Under the pieces are notes generated by a model. The model had not been told where the DNA came from. It saw only the letters and a list, made by a program, of their open reading frames with translations, and searched no databases. Shown in pieces: positions 8,194 to 64,000 of a stretch of 64,000 nt of DNA. Each line of letters opens with the position of its first letter. Within the stretch, counting starts at the first letter, position 1. Both the position numbers and the translations under genes were made by a program. Source of the stretch: a bacterium (GTDB taxonomy: Archaea; Thermoplasmatota; E2; JACPAO01; JAHFTW01); assembly GCA_040390065.1 (NCBI GenBank), contig JAZJZE010000001.1, positions 337,102 to 401,101 on the forward strand, given 5' to 3'.

Positions 8194-8273
8194 GGGGGAA
8201 TGCCCGGGCGTGCTGCCAGCCACGCTCGGCCAAAGGGGAGCTCCACCATGAGGTTGACGCAACCTCGCGAGCC

Positions 8274-8631
8274 CGCAGCGTTCCTCGCCGCTTCGCGGCA
8301 TCGGCAAACCTGTCCTGGCACCTACGACGTGCTCGCTTCGCTCGCGGTCTCAGTGCACAGGACAGGATTTGGCGCTGCGGCCGCGCAGGCGCAGCCGCAG
8401 CGTTCCTCGCCGCTTCGCGGCATCGGCAAACCCTGCCCATGCACCTGTCTGTCGCCGGCGGGCGCTCGGCGCCGCCGATGCGACGCGACTTAGTGCACAG
8501 GACAGGATTTGGCGCTGCGGCCGCGCAGGCGCAGCCGCAGCGTTCCTCGCCGCTTCGCGGCATCGGCAAACCCTGCCCATGCACCTGTCTGTCGCCGGCG
8601 GGCGCTAGGCGCCGCCGATGCGACGCGACTT
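8274..8631. repeat. Tandem 140-bp repeat (2 full units plus a diverged partial unit), each unit ending in the 3' end of tRNA-Leu
   Basis: AGTGCACAGGACAGGATTT at 8352-8370, 8492-8510 and, in the real tRNA, 8632-8650. Units 8352-8491 and 8492-8631 are nearly identical by eye. Confidence 0.85.
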
Positions 8632-8633
8632 AG

Positions 8634-8715
8634 TGCACAGGACAGGATTTGAACCTGCGAACCACAAAGGAGAAGGCCCTGAACCTTCCGTCGTTGGCCA
8701 CTTGACTACCTGTGC
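8634..8715 (-). tRNA. tRNA-Leu (anticodon CAG), type II, no intron, no encoded CCA
   Basis: Manual cloverleaf: acceptor GCACAGG/CCTGTGC, D arm GTC..GAC, anticodon arm GAAGG-TTCAGGG-CCTTC, long variable arm, T arm GCAGG-TTCAAAT-CCTGT, discriminator A. Confidence 0.85.
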
Positions 8716-8792
8716 ATTTGGGGAAAAGGGCCAGCCCTTGCGGAGGGCTGCATCCGGCCGACTTCAGGTTGGCACTTGAGGGTTGCGCCCAG

Positions 8793-8910
8793 GCGAACCA
8801 CAAAGGGGAAGGCCGTAGCCCTCGGGCCATCAGGTCCGAGGGCGCGACGTGGACGCCGCGAAGCGGCGGCCCGGCCAACCTTCCGTCGTTGGCCACTTGA
8901 CTACCTGTGC
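8793..8910 (-). pseudogene. Truncated, disrupted copy of the tRNA-Leu 5' part
   Basis: The first 34 nt and the next 22 nt (1 mismatch) match the tRNA. The CAG triplet is replaced by a 62-nt two-hairpin insert (8815-8876). No T arm or 3' acceptor strand follows. Confidence 0.75.
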
Positions 8911-8950
8911 AGACGGTTGGGAAGAGGGGAGAAGTGGATTCCCTTGAACC

Positions 8951-27966: not shown

Positions 27967-28241
27967 CTAGAGGTCATTGCATAACCTCCAGGAGGTCTGC
28001 GCGCGCCGGTTTGCAAGGAGTGCTAGGAGGTTGGGCCGACTTCGTGGCAGCGCCACGACGAGGTCCAGGCGACGACGCAATCCGCCGCAAAGCGGCGCGC
28101 CCTTGCGGGTCGTTTTCCGGCCACACACTCCTGGCGCCGGCGGTCTTGGCGGACTTCCGGCCCGCCGGCGACCGCCCCCGCCAGGATCGCGAAGGCCGGA
28201 AAACGACGCAGGCACCCTGGAAGCTATGCAATGACCTCTAG
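27967..28241. mobile_element. MITE-like element, 275 bp, ~26-bp terminal inverted repeats
   Basis: Left end CTAGAGGTCATTGCATAACCTCCAGG. Reverse complement of right end CTAGAGGTCATTGCATAGCTTCCAGG (24/26 match). No ORF of transposase size. Sits between convergent genes. Confidence 0.7.
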
Positions 28242-30939: not shown

Positions 30940-32340
30940 CTACGCTTCGTCGACGGCGTCGCCAACGCGGCCGGCCGCGACGCCGCCACCGCCCATCTGC
31001 GCGCCCGTCTTCGAGGTCTTCACGAAGACGCGCGGCTTGCGCAGCACGAACTCATCGAAGAACGCTGCCCAGGCGACGATGCTCAGCATGGTGTAATACA
31101 CGGGGAGGAAGGGCAGGGCGGCCACTTCGCGCCATTCGTGGCGGACACCGTCGATGGCATCGCGCACCATCATCGTGGCCCAGGACACAAACGGCGCCAC
31201 GGCGGCCGCCGTCCAGATCCAAGTCCATTGCGACGGCAAGGCCCCCACGTCGTACCCGAAGCGCCCAAGGATGCCAAGCGGCAGCAGCAGGATCAGCGCC
31301 ATCGGGATGAAGACGTATACGAACGTGAGGTACAGGTCGAGGCGCGGCAGGGCACGCACGCGCAGGCGATGGATGCGCGGCAAGTAGTGGGCTGCAACCT
31401 GGAACCAGCCGCGCGCCCAGCGCTTGCGTTGCGCCCACCAGGCCGCAAGGCGGGCGGGGTTCTCCTCGTGGGTCTGGATGCCCGGGTCGACGCGCAGGCG
31501 GCCGCCGCTGGCGTGGATGCGCACCGAGTAGTCGATGTCCTCGACGAGCTGCTCCTCCGAGTAGCCGCCGACGCGGTCGAACACCGACCGCCGGAAGAAC
31601 ACCTGGCCACCGCCGAAGAACGTGAAGCCGGAGGCCAGCTGTCGGGCGTAGATGTCGCCGCGTTCCAGGATGTCGCGCTCGATGCGCATCATGAGCGCCA
31701 GGGGCGATTCGCGGCCGTTCAGCCCAATGGCGCGTCCCTTGATGCAGTCGAGCTTCGGGTCGGCGAGGAACCAGCGGGCGGCGCGCTGCACGGCGTCGGG
31801 CTTGAGGACTTGGTCGGCGTCGAGGCCAACGAGGATGTCGCCGTGGCACTGCGCCACACCGTCGTTGAAGGCAGCGGACTTGCCCGGCCGGCCGCCGGAG
31901 CGCTCGAACACGCGGAAGCGCGGGTCGCGTTCGGCCTGGTCGCGAAGGAGTTGCTGCGTGCCGTCGTTCGAGCGCGATTCGCAGACGTACAGGAACTCGA
32001 TGCGGTCACGCGGATAGTCGACGTGGGCGAGGGCCGCCATGGACCGCGGCAGGACGTTGGCCTCGTTGTACGTGGGGATGAGGATGGTGACGCGCGGCCA
32101 TTCGGCGCCGTCGGGCTTGGCGGGCGGTTCCGGGTTGCGGCGCAGCCCCGCGATGCACGAGCCGTAGGTCCGCACGAGGGGGAACGCCATGAGGGCCACG
32201 AGGACCACGCCGACCACGGCGAAGTAGTGGGGCACGAAGAAGCCGGGGACGAGCAGCAGGAGCGTGCAAGCCAGCATGGCGAGCGTGGTGGCGACGATCT
32301 CGCCCCAGTCCGGGCGGTCGCGGTGCAGGCTCACTTCCAT
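30940..32340 (-). CDS. Membrane-embedded family-2 glycosyltransferase, processive beta-glycan synthase type
   Basis: ATG at 32340 (MEVSLHRD..). N-terminal TMs. Motifs LDADQ (DxD), VEDIDYS (ED), QRKRWARG (QxxRW). C-terminal TM bundle. Confidence 0.85.
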   Translation of the reverse strand: MEVSLHRDRPDWGEIVATTLAMLACTLLLLVPGFFVPHYFAVVGVVLVALMAFPLVRTYGSCIAGLRRNPEPPAKPDGAEWPRVTILIPTYNEANVLPRSMAALAHVDYPRDRIEFLYVCESRSNDGTQQLLRDQAERDPRFRVFERSGGRPGKSAAFNDGVAQCHGDILVGLDADQVLKPDAVQRAARWFLADPKLDCIKGRAIGLNGRESPLALMMRIERDILERGDIYARQLASGFTFFGGGQVFFRRSVFDRVGGYSEEQLVEDIDYSVRIHASGGRLRVDPGIQTHEENPARLAAWWAQRKRWARGWFQVAAHYLPRIHRLRVRALPRLDLYLTFVYVFIPMALILLLPLGILGRFGYDVGALPSQWTWIWTAAAVAPFVSWATMMVRDAIDGVRHEWREVAALPFLPVYYTMLSIVAWAAFFDEFVLRKPRVFVKTSKTGAQMGGGGVAAGRVGDAVDEA

Positions 32341-33761
32341 GGCATGGCCTCTTCGAGGATGGACTCCGCCCGGACGGGCGCGACGGCGGGGGCGGCGGGC
32401 AAGGCGGGCTCCGCGCCGGTTTTGGACGTCTTCACGTACACCGGCTTCGTCCGCAGCACGAACTCGTCGAGGAAGGCGCTTGCGAACACGGCGCCCTGCA
32501 GGACAAGGTAGGGCCAAAGGAGCGGCACGGCCAACCACTCGACGGCCGCGTGCTTCACGCCGTCGCGCCGGTCGTGCCACCACATGCCGATCCAGGCCAC
32601 GGTGGGCATCGCCGCGAAGAAGATGCCGCCGAAGGTCTCGACGGCTTGCGGGAAGAACGTGCGGACGTGGATGCCGAGGAAGGGCATGATGACGAACGGC
32701 AGCGTCATCAGCAGCACGACCGGCAGGAGCGAGAACGCGAGGTTGTAGAACAGGTCGGCGCGCATGCCAAGCGGTGCGCGGTTCATGGTCGACAGGTGCG
32801 GCAGGTAGCGCTCCACCAGTTGCATGCCGCCGCGCGTCCAGCGCGTGCGCTGCGCCCACCACGCCGACCAGTTGGCCGGGTGCTCCTCATGGCTAATCAC
32901 GAACGGGTCGACGACAAGGCGGTAGCCGGCCTGGTGGATGCGCACCGAGAAGTCGATGTCCTCGATCAGGACCTCCTCGTCGAAGCGGCCGATCTGCTCG
33001 AACAGGCTGCGGCGGAAGAACGCCTGGCCGCCGCCGAAGAACGTGAAGCCGCCGACGACCTCGCGGAAGTAGGTCTCGCCGCGCTCGACGACGTCGCGTT
33101 CGAGCGTCGTGCACAGGGCCAGCGTCGACTCCGTCGCGTTCACGGCCATGGGGCGACCCTTCACGCAGGCGATGTTCGGGTCCGACAGGAACCAGCGCAC
33201 GGCGCGCTCGATGGCGTCCGGCTTGAGGGCGTGGTCCGCGTCCAAGGAGACCAGGATTTCGCCCGTGCAGTGGTCGAGGCCGAAGTTGCACGCCGCCGCC
33301 TTGCCGCCGCGCTTGTCGTTTCGTTCGACCGGCACGATGCGCGCGTCGCGTTCGGCAAAGGAGCGGATGATCGCGGCCGTCGCGTCGGTGCTGCGCTTCT
33401 CGTAGACGTACACGAACTCGATGCGGTCGCGGGGGTAGCGCACATGCTCCATCGCAGCCATCGTGCGTGGCAGGACCGCCGCCTCGTTGTAGGCGACGAT
33501 GAGGACGGACACGGTCGGCCACTCGATGCCGTCGGGCTTTGCCGGGGGGTCCACGGGGCGTCGACCGGTCAGGATCGTGGCCGCCAGGGTGCGCACGCCG
33601 AGGATGGCCAGGCCGACGAAGCCGGCGGTGGCAAGCACGCGGAAGTAGCCGTCGACGTACAGGCCGGGGGCGAGGGCCAGGAGGAGCAGGCCGAGGCCGA
33701 TGCCGAGCTTGCGCGCCACGTCGCGTGGCCGTGCGCGCCTGCCCGACAGCTTGACCTCCAT
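32331..33761 (-). CDS. Membrane-embedded family-2 glycosyltransferase, processive type (paralogue of 30940..32340)
   Basis: ATG at 33761 (MEVKLSGRR..). Motifs LDADH, IEDIDFS, QRTRWTRG. 10-nt overlap with the downstream paralogue. Confidence 0.85.
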   Translation of the reverse strand: MEVKLSGRRARPRDVARKLGIGLGLLLLALAPGLYVDGYFRVLATAGFVGLAILGVRTLAATILTGRRPVDPPAKPDGIEWPTVSVLIVAYNEAAVLPRTMAAMEHVRYPRDRIEFVYVYEKRSTDATAAIIRSFAERDARIVPVERNDKRGGKAAACNFGLDHCTGEILVSLDADHALKPDAIERAVRWFLSDPNIACVKGRPMAVNATESTLALCTTLERDVVERGETYFREVVGGFTFFGGGQAFFRRSLFEQIGRFDEEVLIEDIDFSVRIHQAGYRLVVDPFVISHEEHPANWSAWWAQRTRWTRGGMQLVERYLPHLSTMNRAPLGMRADLFYNLAFSLLPVVLLMTLPFVIMPFLGIHVRTFFPQAVETFGGIFFAAMPTVAWIGMWWHDRRDGVKHAAVEWLAVPLLWPYLVLQGAVFASAFLDEFVLRTKPVYVKTSKTGAEPALPAAPAVAPVRAESILEEAMPWK

Positions 33762-33860
33762 CGCATTGTCTCCCGGGCAGGCCCCACCGGACCCGCCGCA
33801 CCCTCGCACGACCTCCCCACATTCATGAAGGTATGGGTTGACTTCCTTCCTGGGGCGAGG

Positions 33861-33866
33861 AAAAAA
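33861..33866 (-). terminator. T6 run 14 nt downstream of the 33880..35640 stop codon
   Basis: GGAAAAAAGG on the plus strand. Archaeal oligo-T terminator-like. Confidence 0.3.
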
Positions 33867-33879
33867 GGCGGCGTTGCGG

Positions 33880-35640
33880 CTACCGGTGGTAGGCCGCGTC
33901 GAAGTCCTTGCGGGCCGTTGCATCCTTCAGGATGGTCGCGGCGTAGACGTCGGATCCGGCCAGCCGGCCCGCCTCGCCCGTGTGCCGTGTGTCCGCCCAG
34001 AAGACCGTGGCCGATTCCTTGCTCGTGTCCAGCCCGATGTAGTCGCCGATGAAGGGCGCGCCGCTCTGGTGGTGGCCGAGGTCGCCATCGAACGAGCGCT
34101 CCGTCACGCGCACGTTGGGGTGGAAACTGTCGCCGCCGTTGTCCGAATAGGCGTAGTACACGTCGAGCAGGCGGTTGTCCGGCGAGTTGCGCCGGTCGTA
34201 CCACGCGACGTGCACCCCGCCCAGCGGGTCGACGTCGACCCAGGGCACGAATTGGTCGCCCTTCTCCGTGTCGCTGACGCGCACCGGTGCACTCCAGGCC
34301 ATGCCATCGTCGGAGTGCCGCATCATGAGCTGCACGTCCGTGTTGACGCGCCCGGTCTGCTCGGCGTAGACGACGTAGCGCCGGCCATCGTGGGCCCCGC
34401 CGGATGTATCGATGGCGAGCACCGGGTACGTGGCGACGCGGAAATGGCTGGGTCCGGTTCCGTCGCGCGGGCCGACGCTTGGGTCGGACTTGATGGGCGA
34501 GATGGTGAACGTCGACATGACGGGGGCGAAAACGGTGCCGCCGGGTGTGACCGTCCCTTCCGTGTACGACAGTTGGTCGCCGTTCGGGTGGACGCCCACG
34601 GGCAGGGTTCCGTCGGTGTCGGCCGCCCAGATGACAGCGACGCGCGGCATGCCGCCGGGACCGTTGGGCAGATACTGCGGCATGGAGAATTGCGAATCGA
34701 GGCCGCTCGACGTGCCGGGGGCGAACGTGTGCTGCGGGCCCCAGGTCTTGCCACCGTCCATGCTCTCGCAATAACTGATGACGCTCGTCGACTGCGCGAG
34801 CAGGCCGGTCGGGTCGGGGACGCCGCTGGGCAGCGGCGGCGTCGAGTAGTACGGTGTCCACGTCACGATCGCATGGTCGCCGCCCGGCTGCAACGCGAAC
34901 CACTGCTTGTCATTGAATTGGATGCCGTTGTCGCCGACACCGCAGAACGAGATGGCGCCGAAGGTCTTGCCGCCGTCCGTGCTGGTTGCGAAGTAGATCT
35001 GTGTTGCCGTGGTGGCGTCCGTCGACCCCGGATAGACCGGGTTGGGCTGGCTCGGAACCTGACCGGCATGCGCACCGCCGTAGTTGAGGCCCGAGAACAC
35101 GAAGGTGCCATCGTCGTCGAACGCCACGACCGGGTCCGTGTTGCAGGTGTTTCCAGAGATGGCGCTTGGACGCTTGTCGCCGGGGAAGCCAGGCATGAGG
35201 TCGTCGTTCCACGTCAGGCCGCCGTCCAGGCTGGAGAACGTGCCCATCCACACGTTGTATTTCCCGCAACCTGCGCCGCCCCCGAGGTAGGAGACCGTGT
35301 AGTCCTTCGCGCCGCCCGCGACGTTGAGCGGGTTCGTCGGATTCACGGCGACGGACACCTCGTTGCCCGGCCCATGCTGCGTCGTCCAGTCCATCGTGTG
35401 GTTGTCGACGAGCGGATGCGTCACGCGATGGTTGCACTCGTCGATGCCGGCCTGCGACGCCGCCGCCCCGATGCGGTAGCCGGCATTGCACAGGAAGATG
35501 GTGTACGGTGCGGCGCCCGCCAGGTCGGAGTCGGTCGCCGTCGGGGGCAACGCCGGCCCCGTGTCGTCGCTGCCGCCGAAACAGCCGGCCAGCAAGGGGA
35601 CCAGAAACGCCGCCAGGGCAAGTGCGGGCTTTGCCTTCAT
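33880..35640 (-). CDS. BNR/Asp-box beta-propeller lipoprotein (sialidase/glycosidase-like fold)
   Basis: MKAKPALALAAFLVPLLAGC lipobox. Asp-boxes SLDGGLTW, STDGGKTF, SMDGGKTW, HSDDGMAW, SDNGGDSF. Confidence 0.8.
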   Translation of the reverse strand: MKAKPALALAAFLVPLLAGCFGGSDDTGPALPPTATDSDLAGAAPYTIFLCNAGYRIGAAASQAGIDECNHRVTHPLVDNHTMDWTTQHGPGNEVSVAVNPTNPLNVAGGAKDYTVSYLGGGAGCGKYNVWMGTFSSLDGGLTWNDDLMPGFPGDKRPSAISGNTCNTDPVVAFDDDGTFVFSGLNYGGAHAGQVPSQPNPVYPGSTDATTATQIYFATSTDGGKTFGAISFCGVGDNGIQFNDKQWFALQPGGDHAIVTWTPYYSTPPLPSGVPDPTGLLAQSTSVISYCESMDGGKTWGPQHTFAPGTSSGLDSQFSMPQYLPNGPGGMPRVAVIWAADTDGTLPVGVHPNGDQLSYTEGTVTPGGTVFAPVMSTFTISPIKSDPSVGPRDGTGPSHFRVATYPVLAIDTSGGAHDGRRYVVYAEQTGRVNTDVQLMMRHSDDGMAWSAPVRVSDTEKGDQFVPWVDVDPLGGVHVAWYDRRNSPDNRLLDVYYAYSDNGGDSFHPNVRVTERSFDGDLGHHQSGAPFIGDYIGLDTSKESATVFWADTRHTGEAGRLAGSDVYAATILKDATARKDFDAAYHR

Positions 35641-43597: not shown

Positions 43598-43807
43598 TCA
43601 ACCGCCACTGAACGCCGACAGCAGGACAAGGGTCTCGCCATCGACGACGGGCTCGTCCTCGGGGACCGGCGTCGAGCCGCGAATGGCAAGCGTGTGGTCC
43701 GGCGATTGACCGACGGCGCGAAGCACGTCCCCAACCGTCGCACCGGGCGACAAGGCGACGTCGCGGGGCGGCTCTCGGGCGGGTCGGAAGACAATGCGGA
43801 CCTGCAA
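43598..43807 (-). CDS. ThiS/MoaD-family ubiquitin-like small protein (SAMP-like) ending in Gly-Gly
   Basis: 69 aa. ..ATVGDVLRAVG..VPEDEPVVDGETLVLLSAFSGG*. TTG start 1 nt after the tRNA-Ser 3' end. Confidence 0.6.
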   Translation of the reverse strand: MQVRIVFRPAREPPRDVALSPGATVGDVLRAVGQSPDHTLAIRGSTPVPEDEPVVDGETLVLLSAFSGG

Positions 43808-43808
43808 G

Positions 43809-43891
43809 CGCCGAGGGCAGGATTTGAACCTGCAAATCCAGGGGACACTGGTTTTCGAGACCAGCGCAATACCGGGTTATGCGACCTCGGC
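43809..43891 (-). tRNA. tRNA-Ser (anticodon CGA), type II
   Basis: Manual cloverleaf: acceptor GCCGAGG/CCTCGGC, anticodon arm CTGGT-CTCGAAA-ACCAG, variable arm, T arm GCAGG-TTCAAAT-CCTGC, discriminator G. Confidence 0.88.
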
Positions 43892-44308
43892 AGGTAAGTC
43901 GGCCGACTTGTGGCCGCTATTTCCAGGTTTCGTGCCGTGCGAGCGCGACGCGCGAGCCATCAGGGGGTCGCGGGGGGCGGTAAGCCCCCCCGCAGGTCCG
44001 CGGGGCCGCAGGCCCCGCTGCCCAAATGATCGACCTGTTTGCAGGTCGAGGGACACTGGTTTTCGAGACCAGCGCAATACCGGGTTATGCGACCTCGGCA
44101 GGTAAGTCGGCCGACTTGTGGCCGCTATTTCCAGGTTTCGTGCCGTGCGAGCGCGACGCGCGAGCCATCAGGGGGTCGCGGGGGGCGGTAAGCCCCCCCG
44201 CAGGTCCGCGGGGCCGCAGGCCCCGCTGCCCAAATGATCGACCTGTTTGCAGGTCGAGGGACACTGGTTTTCGAGACCAGCGCAATACCGGGTCATGCGA
44301 CCTCGGCA
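43842..44308. repeat. Tandem 208-bp repeat (2 full units plus a truncated third), each carrying the first 50 nt of tRNA-Ser plus a 158-nt hairpin-rich spacer
   Basis: Units 43842-44049 and 44050-44257 are identical by eye. The third copy ends ~44308 with one substitution (44294). The ORF track shows the same 66-aa peptide twice (43877..44077, 44085..44285). Confidence 0.9.
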
Positions 44309-44340
44309 GAAGGGCGCTGGGGCGGAGGCCAGGGCTCGCC

Positions 44341-44348
44341 TATATTCC
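44341..44348. promoter_or_regulatory. TATA-like TATATTCC between the tRNA-Ser repeat array and the subtilase gene
   Basis: The only A/T-rich patch in the spacer. ~38-45 nt upstream of ATG 44386 and ~35-40 nt upstream of the outermost tRNA 5' fragment on the other strand. Confidence 0.3.
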
Positions 44349-44385
44349 CATTTCGAGGGGCCGCAGGTCGACCCACCCAAACCTC

Positions 44386-45420
44386 ATGTGGGCGGCGCCG
44401 ATAGGATACGCCGTGCGCAAGCGCCTGGCCATGGCCGCCCTCGTCCTCATGCTTCTGCCGGCCGTTCCGGCCCGCGCCGCCGACCCTGGCGACGGCATCG
44501 TGATCGCCGTTCTCGACACGGGCGTCGACTCGAGCCACCCGGAACTGAAGGACCGCGTCGAGCGCATGAGTTTCTACCGATCCCCCATCCCGCCGGTTCC
44601 CGGCTTGCCAGACCCGACGACGCTTCAGCCGGACCCCGATGGCCACGGCACGGCGGCGGCGAGCGTCGCGGCGGCCAAGTCGTTCGGCGTCGCCTCCGGC
44701 GCCCGCATCCTGGACATGCAGGTCAGCGCCCGCTACACGCAAGGCGCCCTCGACCCGACGGCGGAGGAAGCGGCCACGCGTGCGATGGATGAACTGCTGC
44801 GCCACCACGGCGGCAACGGCACGGCGGGACCGCGCGTCGTGCTGCTGTCCTTCGCGAACAACTTGACGGCATCCGGGGCCGCGACCTTGGCCGCGCAGGC
44901 GCACGACCTGTGGGATGCGGGCGTCCTTGTCATCGTGCCTGCGGGCAGCCACTCGCCGCTTCACGACAGCCCATACGTCGTCACCGTCGGCGACCGCGAC
45001 GCTACGTGTGCAGCGGGCGTTCCGGCGGCCGGCGTCCTCAAGCCCGACCTGGCGGCCGCGGCTCGCAACGTCAAGGTGGCGACGCCTGGAACGCCCACGG
45101 GCGGCCAAGGCCAGGCGTCGGGCACCGCGTTTGCATCGGCGTCCGTCGCCGGGGCCGCGGCCCTCATGTGGCAGGCCCGTCCTGGACTTCCCGTCGCCGC
45201 GCTCGCCGCCATCATGCGTGACACGGCGGCCGACAAGGCCGCAGCCGGTCCCGACGGGTGCACCGGTTTCGGCGCCTTGGACGCGGAGGCGGCCGTCGTC
45301 GCCGCGAAAGCCTGGAGCGATCCCGTTCCGCCGGGCACCCCATCAGCGGCCAAGTCGCCGATGCCGATCGGCCCCTTGGTCGCGCTGGTCCTGTTGGCCT
45401 TGGCGGCTCGTCGGAGGTAG
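44386..45420 (+). CDS. Subtilisin-like serine protease (S8) with C-terminal TM anchor
   Basis: ATG 44386 (or 44431). Catalytic-triad contexts VLDTGVD, HGTAAAS, SGTAFASASVAG. Signal LAMAALVLMLLPAVPARA. Tail PIGPLVALVLLALAARRR. The upstream part of the track ORF lies in the repeat array. Confidence 0.85.
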   Translation: MWAAPIGYAVRKRLAMAALVLMLLPAVPARAADPGDGIVIAVLDTGVDSSHPELKDRVERMSFYRSPIPPVPGLPDPTTLQPDPDGHGTAAASVAAAKSFGVASGARILDMQVSARYTQGALDPTAEEAATRAMDELLRHHGGNGTAGPRVVLLSFANNLTASGAATLAAQAHDLWDAGVLVIVPAGSHSPLHDSPYVVTVGDRDATCAAGVPAAGVLKPDLAAAARNVKVATPGTPTGGQGQASGTAFASASVAGAAALMWQARPGLPVAALAAIMRDTAADKAAAGPDGCTGFGALDAEAAVVAAKAWSDPVPPGTPSAAKSPMPIGPLVALVLLALAARRR

Positions 45421-61944: not shown

Positions 61945-63537
61945 ATGGCAGACACGGAGAAACGCAGTTCCCTCTACGCACTGGAGCCCCTCATCAAGAG
62001 GTGGCCTGCGGTCACGAAGCCTGAGGGTCACGTCTCGTTCAAGACGAAGCTCCTCTGGACGACCATTTGTCTCCTGCTGTACTTCGCGCTGTCGAACATC
62101 CCGCTCTTCGGGGTGTCGAACCAGCAGCTCGACATCTTTGCGAGCTTCCGCGCCGTCTTGGCCGGCCAGTCCGGCACTTTGATGCACCTGGGCATCGGCC
62201 CCATCGTCACCGGGTCCATCGTGATGCAGCTCTTCACGGGCGCCAAGATCATCAAGCTCGACCTCACGAAGGACGAGGACAAGGCGATCTACCAGGGCGC
62301 CCAGAAGATCATGGTCCTGCTGTTCATCTTCATCGAAGCCATCCCGCAAGTGTACGGCTTCCTCAACCCGGACCCGAAGTTCATCTCCTGGTTTGGCAGC
62401 CACAACATCGGCGGCGGCGAGGCCTGGTCCCGCAGTGTCATCATCGCGCAGTTGGCTCTCGGCGCCATCATCGTCTTCCTGATGGACGAACTCATCTCCA
62501 AGTGGGGTATCGGTTCGGGCATTTCGCTCTTCATCGCGGCCGGTGTGAGCCAGTCGCTGTTCCAAGGCACCTTGTCTTGGCAGCCGTCGAACGCGGGCCT
62601 TGGCAACCACTACAACCCCATCACGAACCCGCCCGTCGGGGCCATTCCCATGGCGGGATACGTGTTCTGGAACCGTGACTTGCAAAGCATGGTGCATGGG
62701 CAAGGCTTCGAGAACGTCTTCATCGGCGGCGGCAACTTCCCCAACCCACTCATCGCCTTCTTCGGCACGATCATGATCTTCATGTTCGTGGTCTACGCGG
62801 AAGCAAGCCGCATCGAGTTGCCCCTCGCGCACGGCAAGGTCCGCGGCGCCCGCGGCCGCTACCCGCTGCGCCTCATCTACGCCTCGAACATCCCGGTCAT
62901 CCTGATGGCCGCGCTGCTCGCGAACATCAACATCTTCAGCCTGCTTCTCTGGCAGCACCCAACGTTCAGTCACATCCCCGGCATCGGCCACTCCTGGTGG
63001 GTCGGCACGTACGAGACCGGCGGCGGCTCGACGCAGCCCATCGCCGGCGGCGCCTGGTACCTGCAGCAGTTCCGAGGATTGTCCGATTGGTTCCTGCCCC
63101 TGTTCGACCCGCGCTACAGTGGGCTTGCCCACGGCCACGTGTGGTGGCAGATCCTCATCAAGATCACGTTGTTCCTGGGCCTCTTCATCGGCGGCTCCAT
63201 CATGTTCGCCAAGTTCTGGGTCGACACGACGAACATGGGCCCCCATGACGTGGCCAAGCAGATCGAGAAATCCGGCATGCAGATTCCCGGCTTCCGCCGT
63301 GACCCGCGCGTGCTGGAGAAGGTCCTCGAACGCTACATTCCAACTCTTACCATCATCGGTGGTGCGACGGTCGGTGCTCTGGCAGCCGTTGCCGACATGA
63401 TCGGTACCGTCGGCCAGGCGTCCGGTACTGGATTGCTGCTCTGCGTCGGCATTTTCATGAGGATGTACGAGCAGATTGCGAAGGAACAGGTCATGGAAAT
63501 GCACCCCGTGCTCCGTGGCTTCTTCGGCGCGGAATAG
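61945..63537 (+). CDS. secY: Preprotein translocase subunit SecY
   Basis: 530 aa, 10-TM pattern, LLWTTICLLLYFALSNIPLFGV.. Follows rpl15 as in all prokaryotic spc-type operons. Confidence 0.95.
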   Translation: MADTEKRSSLYALEPLIKRWPAVTKPEGHVSFKTKLLWTTICLLLYFALSNIPLFGVSNQQLDIFASFRAVLAGQSGTLMHLGIGPIVTGSIVMQLFTGAKIIKLDLTKDEDKAIYQGAQKIMVLLFIFIEAIPQVYGFLNPDPKFISWFGSHNIGGGEAWSRSVIIAQLALGAIIVFLMDELISKWGIGSGISLFIAAGVSQSLFQGTLSWQPSNAGLGNHYNPITNPPVGAIPMAGYVFWNRDLQSMVHGQGFENVFIGGGNFPNPLIAFFGTIMIFMFVVYAEASRIELPLAHGKVRGARGRYPLRLIYASNIPVILMAALLANINIFSLLLWQHPTFSHIPGIGHSWWVGTYETGGGSTQPIAGGAWYLQQFRGLSDWFLPLFDPRYSGLAHGHVWWQILIKITLFLGLFIGGSIMFAKFWVDTTNMGPHDVAKQIEKSGMQIPGFRRDPRVLEKVLERYIPTLTIIGGATVGALAAVADMIGTVGQASGTGLLLCVGIFMRMYEQIAKEQVMEMHPVLRGFFGAE

Positions 63538-63917
63538 CGCGCAGCGCGTTCCGCCGACGGGAGCCGGAGCCGGGCGCATCCAGGCCAGGTTCCCGCAATG
63601 TGCTCGCAGCGAGGCCCGCAGGGCCGAGCGGACCTACGGCTGCGCCTCAGCGCGGCCGTAGGGCACGAAGGGCGACGCCGCAGCGTCGCCCGACAGCAGA
63701 TTGCGAAGGAACAGGTCATGGAGATGCATCCGGTTCTGCGCGGCTTCTTCGGGGCCGAATAGCGCGCAGCGCTTCGGCCTTCGAAGGCCGTGCAGAACAG
63801 CGCGCCCGAGCGATGCGAAGCGAGCGTGGGCAAGCGGACCCTGCGGTTGCGCTTCAGCGCGACCGCAGGGGTGGCGAGCGACGCCGCAGCGTCGCGAGCC
63901 GTGCTCCGTGGCTTCAC
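63470..63917 (+). repeat. Re-copied secY 3' end: second 78-bp copy at 63695-63772, third 17-bp fragment at 63899-63915, separated by related hairpin-rich spacers
   Basis: Copy 2 encodes the same 21 residues plus stop as the secY C-terminus, with 8 third-position differences. Spacer hairpins at 63633-63662 / 63839-63870 and 63671-63690 / 63878-63895. Confidence 0.85.
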
Positions 63918-64000
63918 CCGACCCTGCGCAACATTCAGGAAAGCCCGGGTTGGTCAGGCGAAACCTTGTCGGCCCTCAACGTCGGCCAGCCCCGCCGCTC

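Follow-up and report, generated by a model that had tools for sequence, protein, structure and literature searches.

The window analysed here, a 64-kb stretch of archaeal DNA with a G+C content of 68%, contains ribosomal protein operons and genes for RNA polymerase subunit D, HisRS, and a SAMP2-type ubiquitin-like protein. Its nearest public relatives are MAGs labelled Thermoplasmatota or Thermoplasmata, and an exact look-up of its SAMP2 and S8 proteins returned no record. The tRNA-Ser(CGA) array described below lies between the SAMP2 gene and a divergent S8 subtilase gene (Table 1), and the adjacency of SAMP2 and tRNA-Ser is conserved in relatives (whose loci are cited by L numbers).

Table 1 Features of the tRNA-Ser(CGA) array and its neighbourhood, and the tRNA-Leu(CAG) gene of the same window
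Feature	Position	Strand	Details
tRNA-Leu(CAG)	8634-8715	-	Surrounding repeat region 8273-8911
SAMP2-type ubiquitin-like protein gene	43598..43807	-	Pfam PF21965; starts 1-2 nt past the tRNA 3' end
Intact tRNA-Ser(CGA), sole complete gene of the array	43809..43891	-	ARAGORN; Rfam RF00005, 57.2 bits
Innermost repeat copy	within 43809..43891	-	First 50 nt of the intact tRNA-Ser(CGA)
Spacer S, copy 2 (158 nt)	43892..44049	-	100% identical to copy 1
Promoter-like motif GAAACCTGGAAATA	43918..43931	-	AAATA at -31..-27 of the intact tRNA
Hairpin 3 of spacer copy 2	43993-43970		tRNA orientation; followed by the promoter motif and a 26-nt leader
Hairpin 2 of spacer copy 2	44018-44000		tRNA orientation
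Hairpin 1 of spacer copy 2	44049-44030		tRNA orientation
Middle copy, tRNA positions 1-50	44050..44099	-	Pseudogene fragment; truncated tRNA match of 25.8 bits, weak, below the gathering score
Spacer S, copy 1 (158 nt)	44100..44257	-	Identical to copy 2; promoter motif at 44126-44139
Outermost copy, tRNA positions 1-50	44258..44307	-	A14 to G at 44294; behind the native upstream flank
Native promoter-like motif GAAATGGGAATATA	44341..44354	-	Ends 34 nt 5' of the outer fragment
S8 subtilase gene, divergent from the array	44386..45420	+	Pfam PF00082; gene call in the Logan assembly

Anatomy of the tRNA-Ser(CGA) array

Tandem Repeats Finder reported an array at 43842-44309 with a period of 208, 2.2 copies, 99% matches and a score of 929, and a repeat search of the window found the units 43842-44049 and 44050-44257 to be 100% identical. 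A block of 52 nt occurs three times, at 43842, 44050 and 44258, with a single mismatch in the third copy (44294). The initial annotation was thus correct in describing three copies of the tRNA 5' half at 208-bp spacing. The block runs from tRNA position -2 to +50, in the variable loop; one border of the repeat is thus a gene terminus and the other an internal loop position, as in att-type repeats. The start of the intact gene is placed at 43808 or 43809, depending on the caller (ARAGORN, Rfam), and Rfam found only tRNA in the array. The middle copy runs directly into hairpin 1 and has no variable, T or acceptor arm. The substitution at 44294, confined to the outer copy, changes the universally conserved A14, which is A in all 12 related genomes, to G. 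Both spacers hold the hairpins TCGACCTG-CAAA-CAGGTCGA and GCGGGGCC-TGC-GGCCCCGC, matching the CAAA-loop and GC-rich types that had been claimed for each spacer.

Two further readings of the copies were rejected. Split tRNA or tRNA-half genes of the Nanoarchaeum type do not fit, since an intact 83-nt tRNA is present and the sequence after the 5' copies folds into self-contained hairpins. A tRNA intron is likewise at odds with the intact gene, and no bulge-helix-bulge context was visible by eye.

The neighbourhood of the tRNA varies among relatives. The SAMP2 gene starts 1-3 nt past the tRNA-Ser 3' end in the window and in L005, L006, L007, L014 and L032, and tRNA-Ser 3' processing could yield a leaderless SAMP2 mRNA. 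In L004, L008, L025 and L034, the promoter-tRNA segment is inverted, with SAMP2 and the tRNA diverging from one short spacer.

The junctions of the array were compared with a second assembly (Logan, k=31, run SRR26324623), which was probably built from the same reads as the MAG and is therefore independent in algorithm only. One Logan contig stops exactly 30 nt into the repeat (window 43871), and the next opens at window 44264, which is exactly 30 nt short of the substitution at 44294. As these contig ends fall at the repeat borders, both junctions are present in the reads. It should be noted that a k=31 graph represents the unit as a loop without a fixed traversal count, and the breaks at both borders would also be expected if the second full unit were false and the true order were native promoter, 5' fragment, one spacer and tRNA. 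However, the source contig of 421,768 bp indicates that the assembler resolved the region with some evidence, and the tRNA-Leu locus likewise has two near-identical units, which differ by one base. We therefore rate such an assembly artefact as distinctly improbable, a judgement made separately because it is compatible with each of the readings discussed below. Even if it were true, the core of the structure, i.e., two promoters and a duplicated 5' part, would remain. The exact identity of the two units could partly reflect the assembler's resolution of the repeat.

Promoter motifs and the affinities of flank and spacer

A search of both strands of the 64 kb gave three occurrences of the pattern GAAA-N3-8-A[AT]ATA, each upstream of one of the three 5' copies. 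Within GGAAATAG, the AAATA occupies -31 to -27 relative to both inner copies, and the outer copy carries a different patch, GAAATGGGAATATA, ending at -34, giving a distance of 27-34 nt across the three copies. The latter motif sits within the 76-nt gap preceding the divergent S8 protease gene. In relatives, GAAAY-N3-4-(G/C)AAATA precedes tRNA-Ser(CGA) in 13/13 loci from 12 genomes, with the promoters being of a GAAATG or a GAAACC type. These comparative data support the conserved motif as the putative promoter of tRNA-Ser(CGA), and its occurrence at 43918..43931 is likely the working promoter of the intact gene. The proposal in the initial annotation that each unit comprises a promoter and the 5' part of the tRNA therefore holds at the sequence level, with the motif kept in all relatives examined and absent elsewhere in the window. 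A scan for sigma-70 promoters and intrinsic terminators gave 0 sites, but it is of bacterial type and uninformative for an archaeon.

The inner and native motifs differ at 5/14 positions, and beyond the 14-nt motif the outer flank cannot be aligned with the promoter and leader of the spacer. Each piece was compared separately with the 240-nt region preceding the tRNA in each of 11 relatives, and dinucleotide shuffles served as the control; these comparisons use non-coding segments of 30-70 nt from metagenome contigs. The 76-nt outer flank had its best match in the promoter of L007 (24/29, z 5.8), which is among the closest relatives by its S8 and DUF1272 proteins. The promoter and leader of the spacer best matched L004 (29/35, z 8.9) and L034 (z 7.6), two distant lineages with the GAAACC-type motif. 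For spacer positions 2-67, comprising hairpins 1 and 2, the single relative with a match was L025 (54/70, z 12; blastn E 1.4e-5; nhmmer E 5e-4), where the segment lies at -143..-79 relative to the tRNA-Ser. L025 is also distant (51-52% amino-acid identity in SAMP2 and DUF1272) and repeats the layout of the array, in the order native-type promoter with a decayed TATA-like box, hairpin segment, second promoter, and tRNA. It retains both hairpins, with one compensatory change. With its hairpin segment and its promoter best matching different relatives, the spacer has a mosaic history.

In L006, L007 and L032, which share the gene order of the window, the site is empty, the promoter being followed by the tRNA without an insert. 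The 208-bp unit is also absent from eight other related genomes, L025 having a homolog of the hairpin part only. The initial annotation had pointed to the spacer and to the tRNA-Ser loci of relatives as places where mobility might be seen; these comparisons yielded the empty sites and the L025 homolog, but apart from that syntenic homolog no second spacer copy was confirmed in the window or in the loci of 34 relatives (L003-L036).

Identity between the copies stops sharply at -2 and +50, and the flanks are unrelated, suggesting that two molecules sharing only the tRNA sequence were joined. These sharp limits, together with the different affinities of the flanks, disfavour a recent duplication of the resident flank. 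A simple tandem duplication of that kind was rejected, since outer flank and spacer are unalignable and have different nearest relatives. With the outer flank resembling a close relative, and the promoter and hairpins of the spacer resembling distant ones, insertion is favoured over a recent local duplication.

We give about even odds to the view that a single-crossover (Campbell-type) insertion into tRNA-Ser(CGA), within its first 50 nt, left the array as its scar, which was later doubled. DNA from a related lineage would have recombined within the conserved tRNA sequence. This DNA, circular or circularised, would have brought GC-rich hairpins over ~100 nt, followed by a tRNA-Ser promoter of its own, a short leader, and the 5' part of the tRNA. 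One crossover would then yield the order seen here, in which the native promoter and a 5' fragment precede the insert, and the imported promoter is followed by a 5' part fused to the native 3' part. The native promoter would be left on a useless 5' fragment, the outer copy, which is already mutated at A14, and the imported promoter and 5' part would be placed ahead of the native 3' part to give a working gene, the remainder of the insert being 158 nt. Either host homologous recombination or an integrase from a pTN3-like, 5'-targeting element may have been the agent. Unequal homologous recombination at the 52-bp direct repeats accounts best for the doubling to two identical 208-bp units and is all that stacking would need, although a second identical insertion could have had the same outcome. 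The outer two units are probably without function, save for possible truncated transcripts. The argument in the initial annotation that DNA entering the 5' part of a tRNA gene must bring a promoter is sound. As genes of an element are absent, we refer to the array as a scar or remnant.

Several points weigh against the scar reading. The array and the rest of the 64 kb yielded no recombinase or element gene, and apart from hairpins the insert holds nothing but DNA similar to the region upstream of tRNA-Ser. The mosaic history of the spacer, the shortness of the compared segments, and a possible share of the assembler in the two exact units also count against it. The only homolog of the spacer, in L025, is syntenic, which fits an old local feature as well. 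Such a feature could have arisen by an old in-situ tandem duplication of the promoter-tRNA-Ser unit, without foreign DNA; the upstream copy would have decayed, the 5' parts would have been kept alike by gene conversion or unequal crossing-over, and the 208-bp unit would have been amplified recently. We regard this origin as unlikely, while still giving it some weight. Gene conversion should homogenise the flanks too, which is at odds with the abrupt end of identity, and the two promoters, differing as they do in sequence, each have a different nearest relative. The hairpin segment shows no significant similarity to a tRNA 3' part or to a leader plus 5' part, the local alignments with both being no better than those of dinucleotide shuffles. 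Moreover, the segment is absent from all closer relatives, so that many independent losses would be needed. A reverse-complement match in the hairpin segment (ACCTGCAAA..CAGG) had an uncorrected p of ~0.03 and was not relied on. The shared short motifs CCTGATGGC, CGCGACCCC and GCGGACCTRCGG are common in such GC-rich DNA and were discarded, as they were not enriched.

Searches for an element and comparison with known systems

No recombinase or transposase was found by Pfam among the plausible ORFs of the 64-kb window. The ORFs reading through the array had no Pfam or PHROG match and contained no integrase fragment or int(N)/int(C) halves, and the 158 nt between the repeats hold no integrase gene, no element genes, and no recognisable cargo. 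A 70-aa ORF across the outer copy and hairpins, compared with 1.84 billion proteins, matched only two irrelevant Cys-rich repeat proteins. Exact scans of 2.9 million viral contigs with a 26-mer of the 5' part, hairpin 1, the hairpin core, and a tRNA-Leu 28-mer gave no match. By blastn, phage records returned only the tRNA-Ser of a halovirus, and plasmid records returned nothing. A first pattern scan of metagenomes gave 0 matches; with a shorter pattern, 23 loci were recovered, of which four were relevant, with a single copy in each. The suggestion that the unit is a mobile element therefore found no backing in a recombinase within the 64 kb, in a second copy, or in viral, phage or plasmid matches, and the mobility of the 208-bp unit is unproven. 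An insertion of the IS200/IS605 type or of a MITE was also considered and rejected, because the Ser unit has no terminal inverted repeats with short target duplications.

The design of a promoter plus the 5' part of a tRNA, which the initial annotation could not assign to a described family, is already known from the pTN3-like elements of Thermococcales (PMC8371274, PMC5495485). Their integrases use as att the 5' half of a tRNA gene, with 41 bp shared and a minimal site of tRNA-Leu 2-44 (PMC5495485; PMC8371274). Integration separates the intact tRNA from its original promoter and brings it under the element-borne integrase promoter (PMC5495485; PMC8371274), while the native promoter retains a 5' fragment (PMC5495485 S2 Fig legend; PMC8371274 section 18). 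According to a 2021 review, targeting of the 5' half with an imported promoter is unique to the pTN3-like group of Thermococcales among archaeal integrases (PMC8371274). Like the sites of pTN3 and TKV4 (SSV-family suicidal integrases), the array repeats the 5' part of a tRNA, here positions 1-50, and its candidate promoter differs in type from the native one. The pTN3 integrase also inverts DNA between att sites, and the tRNA is flipped relative to SAMP2 in L004, L008, L025 and L034. However, pTN3 is an 18-kb plasmid or provirus with its att inside the integrase gene, which leaves int(N)/int(C) halves, whereas the array has 158 nt between repeats and no integrase fragment. The phylum also differs (Thermoplasmatota), and the repeat extends to the variable loop of a class II tRNA.

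The array further resembles the attL/attR remnants of Thermococcaceae islands and Prochlorococcus tycheposons, in which the repeat is part of a tRNA and one complete gene is accompanied by a partial one. In those systems, successive integrations push older copies outward, and degenerate remnants are found (PMC9897764; bioRxiv 10.1101/2020.12.28.424599). However, those repeats enclose 9-23 kb or more with an integrase and cargo and are nearly all duplications of the 3' part, whereas the units in the window and its relatives are 93-208 bp long, gene-free and, for the array, located on the 5' side and promoter-bearing. CIMEs of Streptococcus ICE families are att-bounded segments without recombination genes that are found in tandem at integration sites. 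The unit of the array is likewise att-bounded and free of recombination genes. Unlike it, CIMEs are kilobase-sized and have a known autonomous partner that uses their att site, whereas the window, the loci of the 34 relatives, the 2.9 million viral contigs, and the phage and plasmid records yielded none. In bacteria, SXT/R391 enters the 5' end of prfC, and SXT/R391 and dusA elements supply a promoter or a new 5' end. For dusA-specific integrases, the integration site is dusA (PMC4482086). These elements resemble the proposed insert in restoring the 5' end and expression of their target, but they are bacterial, large and integrase-encoding, and their targets are protein genes.

Repeats at other gene ends in the window and in relatives

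Structures of the same kind lie on both sides of tRNA-Leu(CAG), the window's second tRNA. On the native flank, 196 nt upstream, there is a perfect 35-nt copy of its positions -1..+34, the end of which falls in the anticodon loop. In L033, the closest relative (Rpo3 94% identical), the tRNA-Leu lies directly on the native flank and the copy is absent, i.e., the site is empty. Downstream of the tRNA-Leu in the window are two 140-nt units, 99% identical, and a third partial unit. At the end of each full unit is a tRNA copy covering the T loop through 5 nt beyond the 3' end; each unit folds into a long, very stable stem, with this 3' copy base-paired to an inverted complement (z -6.3). L033 has an orthologous tRNA-Leu array that shares a 28-mer but differs in unit structure.

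The third locus is the 3' end of secY (+). Its last 78 nt (63470-63547) recur 225 nt downstream at 63695-63772 with 90% identity, and a third short copy lies at about 63900 (region 63470-63920). The eight differences between the 78-nt copies are all synonymous and the encoded peptide is identical, so the copies diverged as working genes, in different genomes. The secY repeat is direct evidence for a xenologous insertion at a sister locus, which argues against the old duplication at tRNA-Ser proposed above. At secY, the two GC-hairpin spacers share homology (z 12.7), and a resemblance to the tRNA-Leu unit is possible.

Related genomes carry further partial copies of tRNA-Ser. L034 (5540-5670) and L035 (4840-5020), both on JGI contigs, have identical HisRS but differ by 93 nt, present after the tRNA-Ser in L035. 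This 93-nt unit is bounded by a 16-nt repeat, ATCCTGCCCTCGGCGC, corresponding to the tRNA-Ser from the T loop to the 3' end. Its spacer resembles units downstream of the tRNA-Ser in L025, which carries copies of the tRNA-Ser 3' end there. The 93-nt difference between strains with identical HisRS shows that such units are gained or lost at strain level. On the 5' side, L005 (7017-7152), L007 (4785-4850) and L016 (about 850-928) have 8-11 nt copies of the tRNA-Ser 5' end in the leader, followed by a hairpin and an imperfect complement. In L005, the leader copy resembles a mini-tRNA of 51 nt whose acceptor stem (GCCGAGG...CCTCGGC) is intact.

Some of these observations favour the old in-situ duplication. 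The unit sizes of 93-208 nt approximate one tRNA gene plus a spacer; the leaders of L005, L007 and L016 supply other partial or internally deleted tRNA-Ser copies; and the downstream tRNA-Leu array is common to the window and L033, yet its units are more alike within than between genomes.

We also considered whether the 208-bp unit is an active, non-autonomous miniature cassette that excises as a small circle, is put back by a tyrosine recombinase acting in trans from another locus, and stacks through successive integrations, with sister cassettes at tRNA-Leu and secY. The complete identity of the two units would agree with this, as would the positions of the borders in loops, the usual crossover sites of integrases (the variable loop at tRNA-Ser, the anticodon and T loops at tRNA-Leu). 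The patchy spread among relatives and the presence/absence difference between L034 and L035 point in the same direction, although deletion between repeats explains the latter equally well. The hairpin modules of the three loci may be related, with pairwise Smith-Waterman z values of 7.7 and 5.4 for the Ser, Leu and secY spacers. However, leave-one-out nhmmer failed to recover the three loci, missing the Ser spacer and giving the Leu unit an E of 1.4. The lack of a recombinase in the 64 kb, of the same cassette at a second site, and of matches in viral contigs and phage or plasmid records also weighs against an active cassette, and a 208-bp DNA circle is near the limit of DNA bendability. We therefore find the active cassette very doubtful. 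By the same token, it is a long shot that this Thermoplasmatota lineage harbours a whole family of gene-free, hairpin-rich cassettes of 90-210 bp that are mobilised in trans and stack in tandem. It is just as improbable that their targets would be the ends of conserved genes (tRNA-Ser 5', tRNA-Leu 5' and 3', secY 3'), and we have equally little confidence that each cassette would bring a replacement gene end, plus a promoter on the 5' side. If true, such a family would represent miniature non-autonomous integrative elements, standing to integrative elements as MITEs do to transposons.

Two other repeats were observed in the window. A 275-bp MITE-like segment at 27967-28241, with 35-nt inverted repeats that are 86% complementary (CTAGAGGTCATTGCATAACCTCC...), is flanked by an HTH regulator gene on one side and an unknown ORF on the other. 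At 30940-33923 (-), two adjacent family-2 glycosyltransferase paralogs have DNA that is 72-77% identical over several blocks, at an offset of about 1421 nt.

On the scar reading, which we prefer, an outcome of the pTN3 type appears in an uncultured, high-GC lineage of Thermoplasmatota, with the element itself absent. Such tRNA fragments can be miscalled as tRNA genes, such repeats break short-read assemblies, and the fragments put extra candidate promoters beside essential genes. Four gene ends within 64 kb carry scars of like kind and relatives differ at strain level, suggesting that conserved gene ends in this lineage may be regular break-and-join points for DNA exchange.
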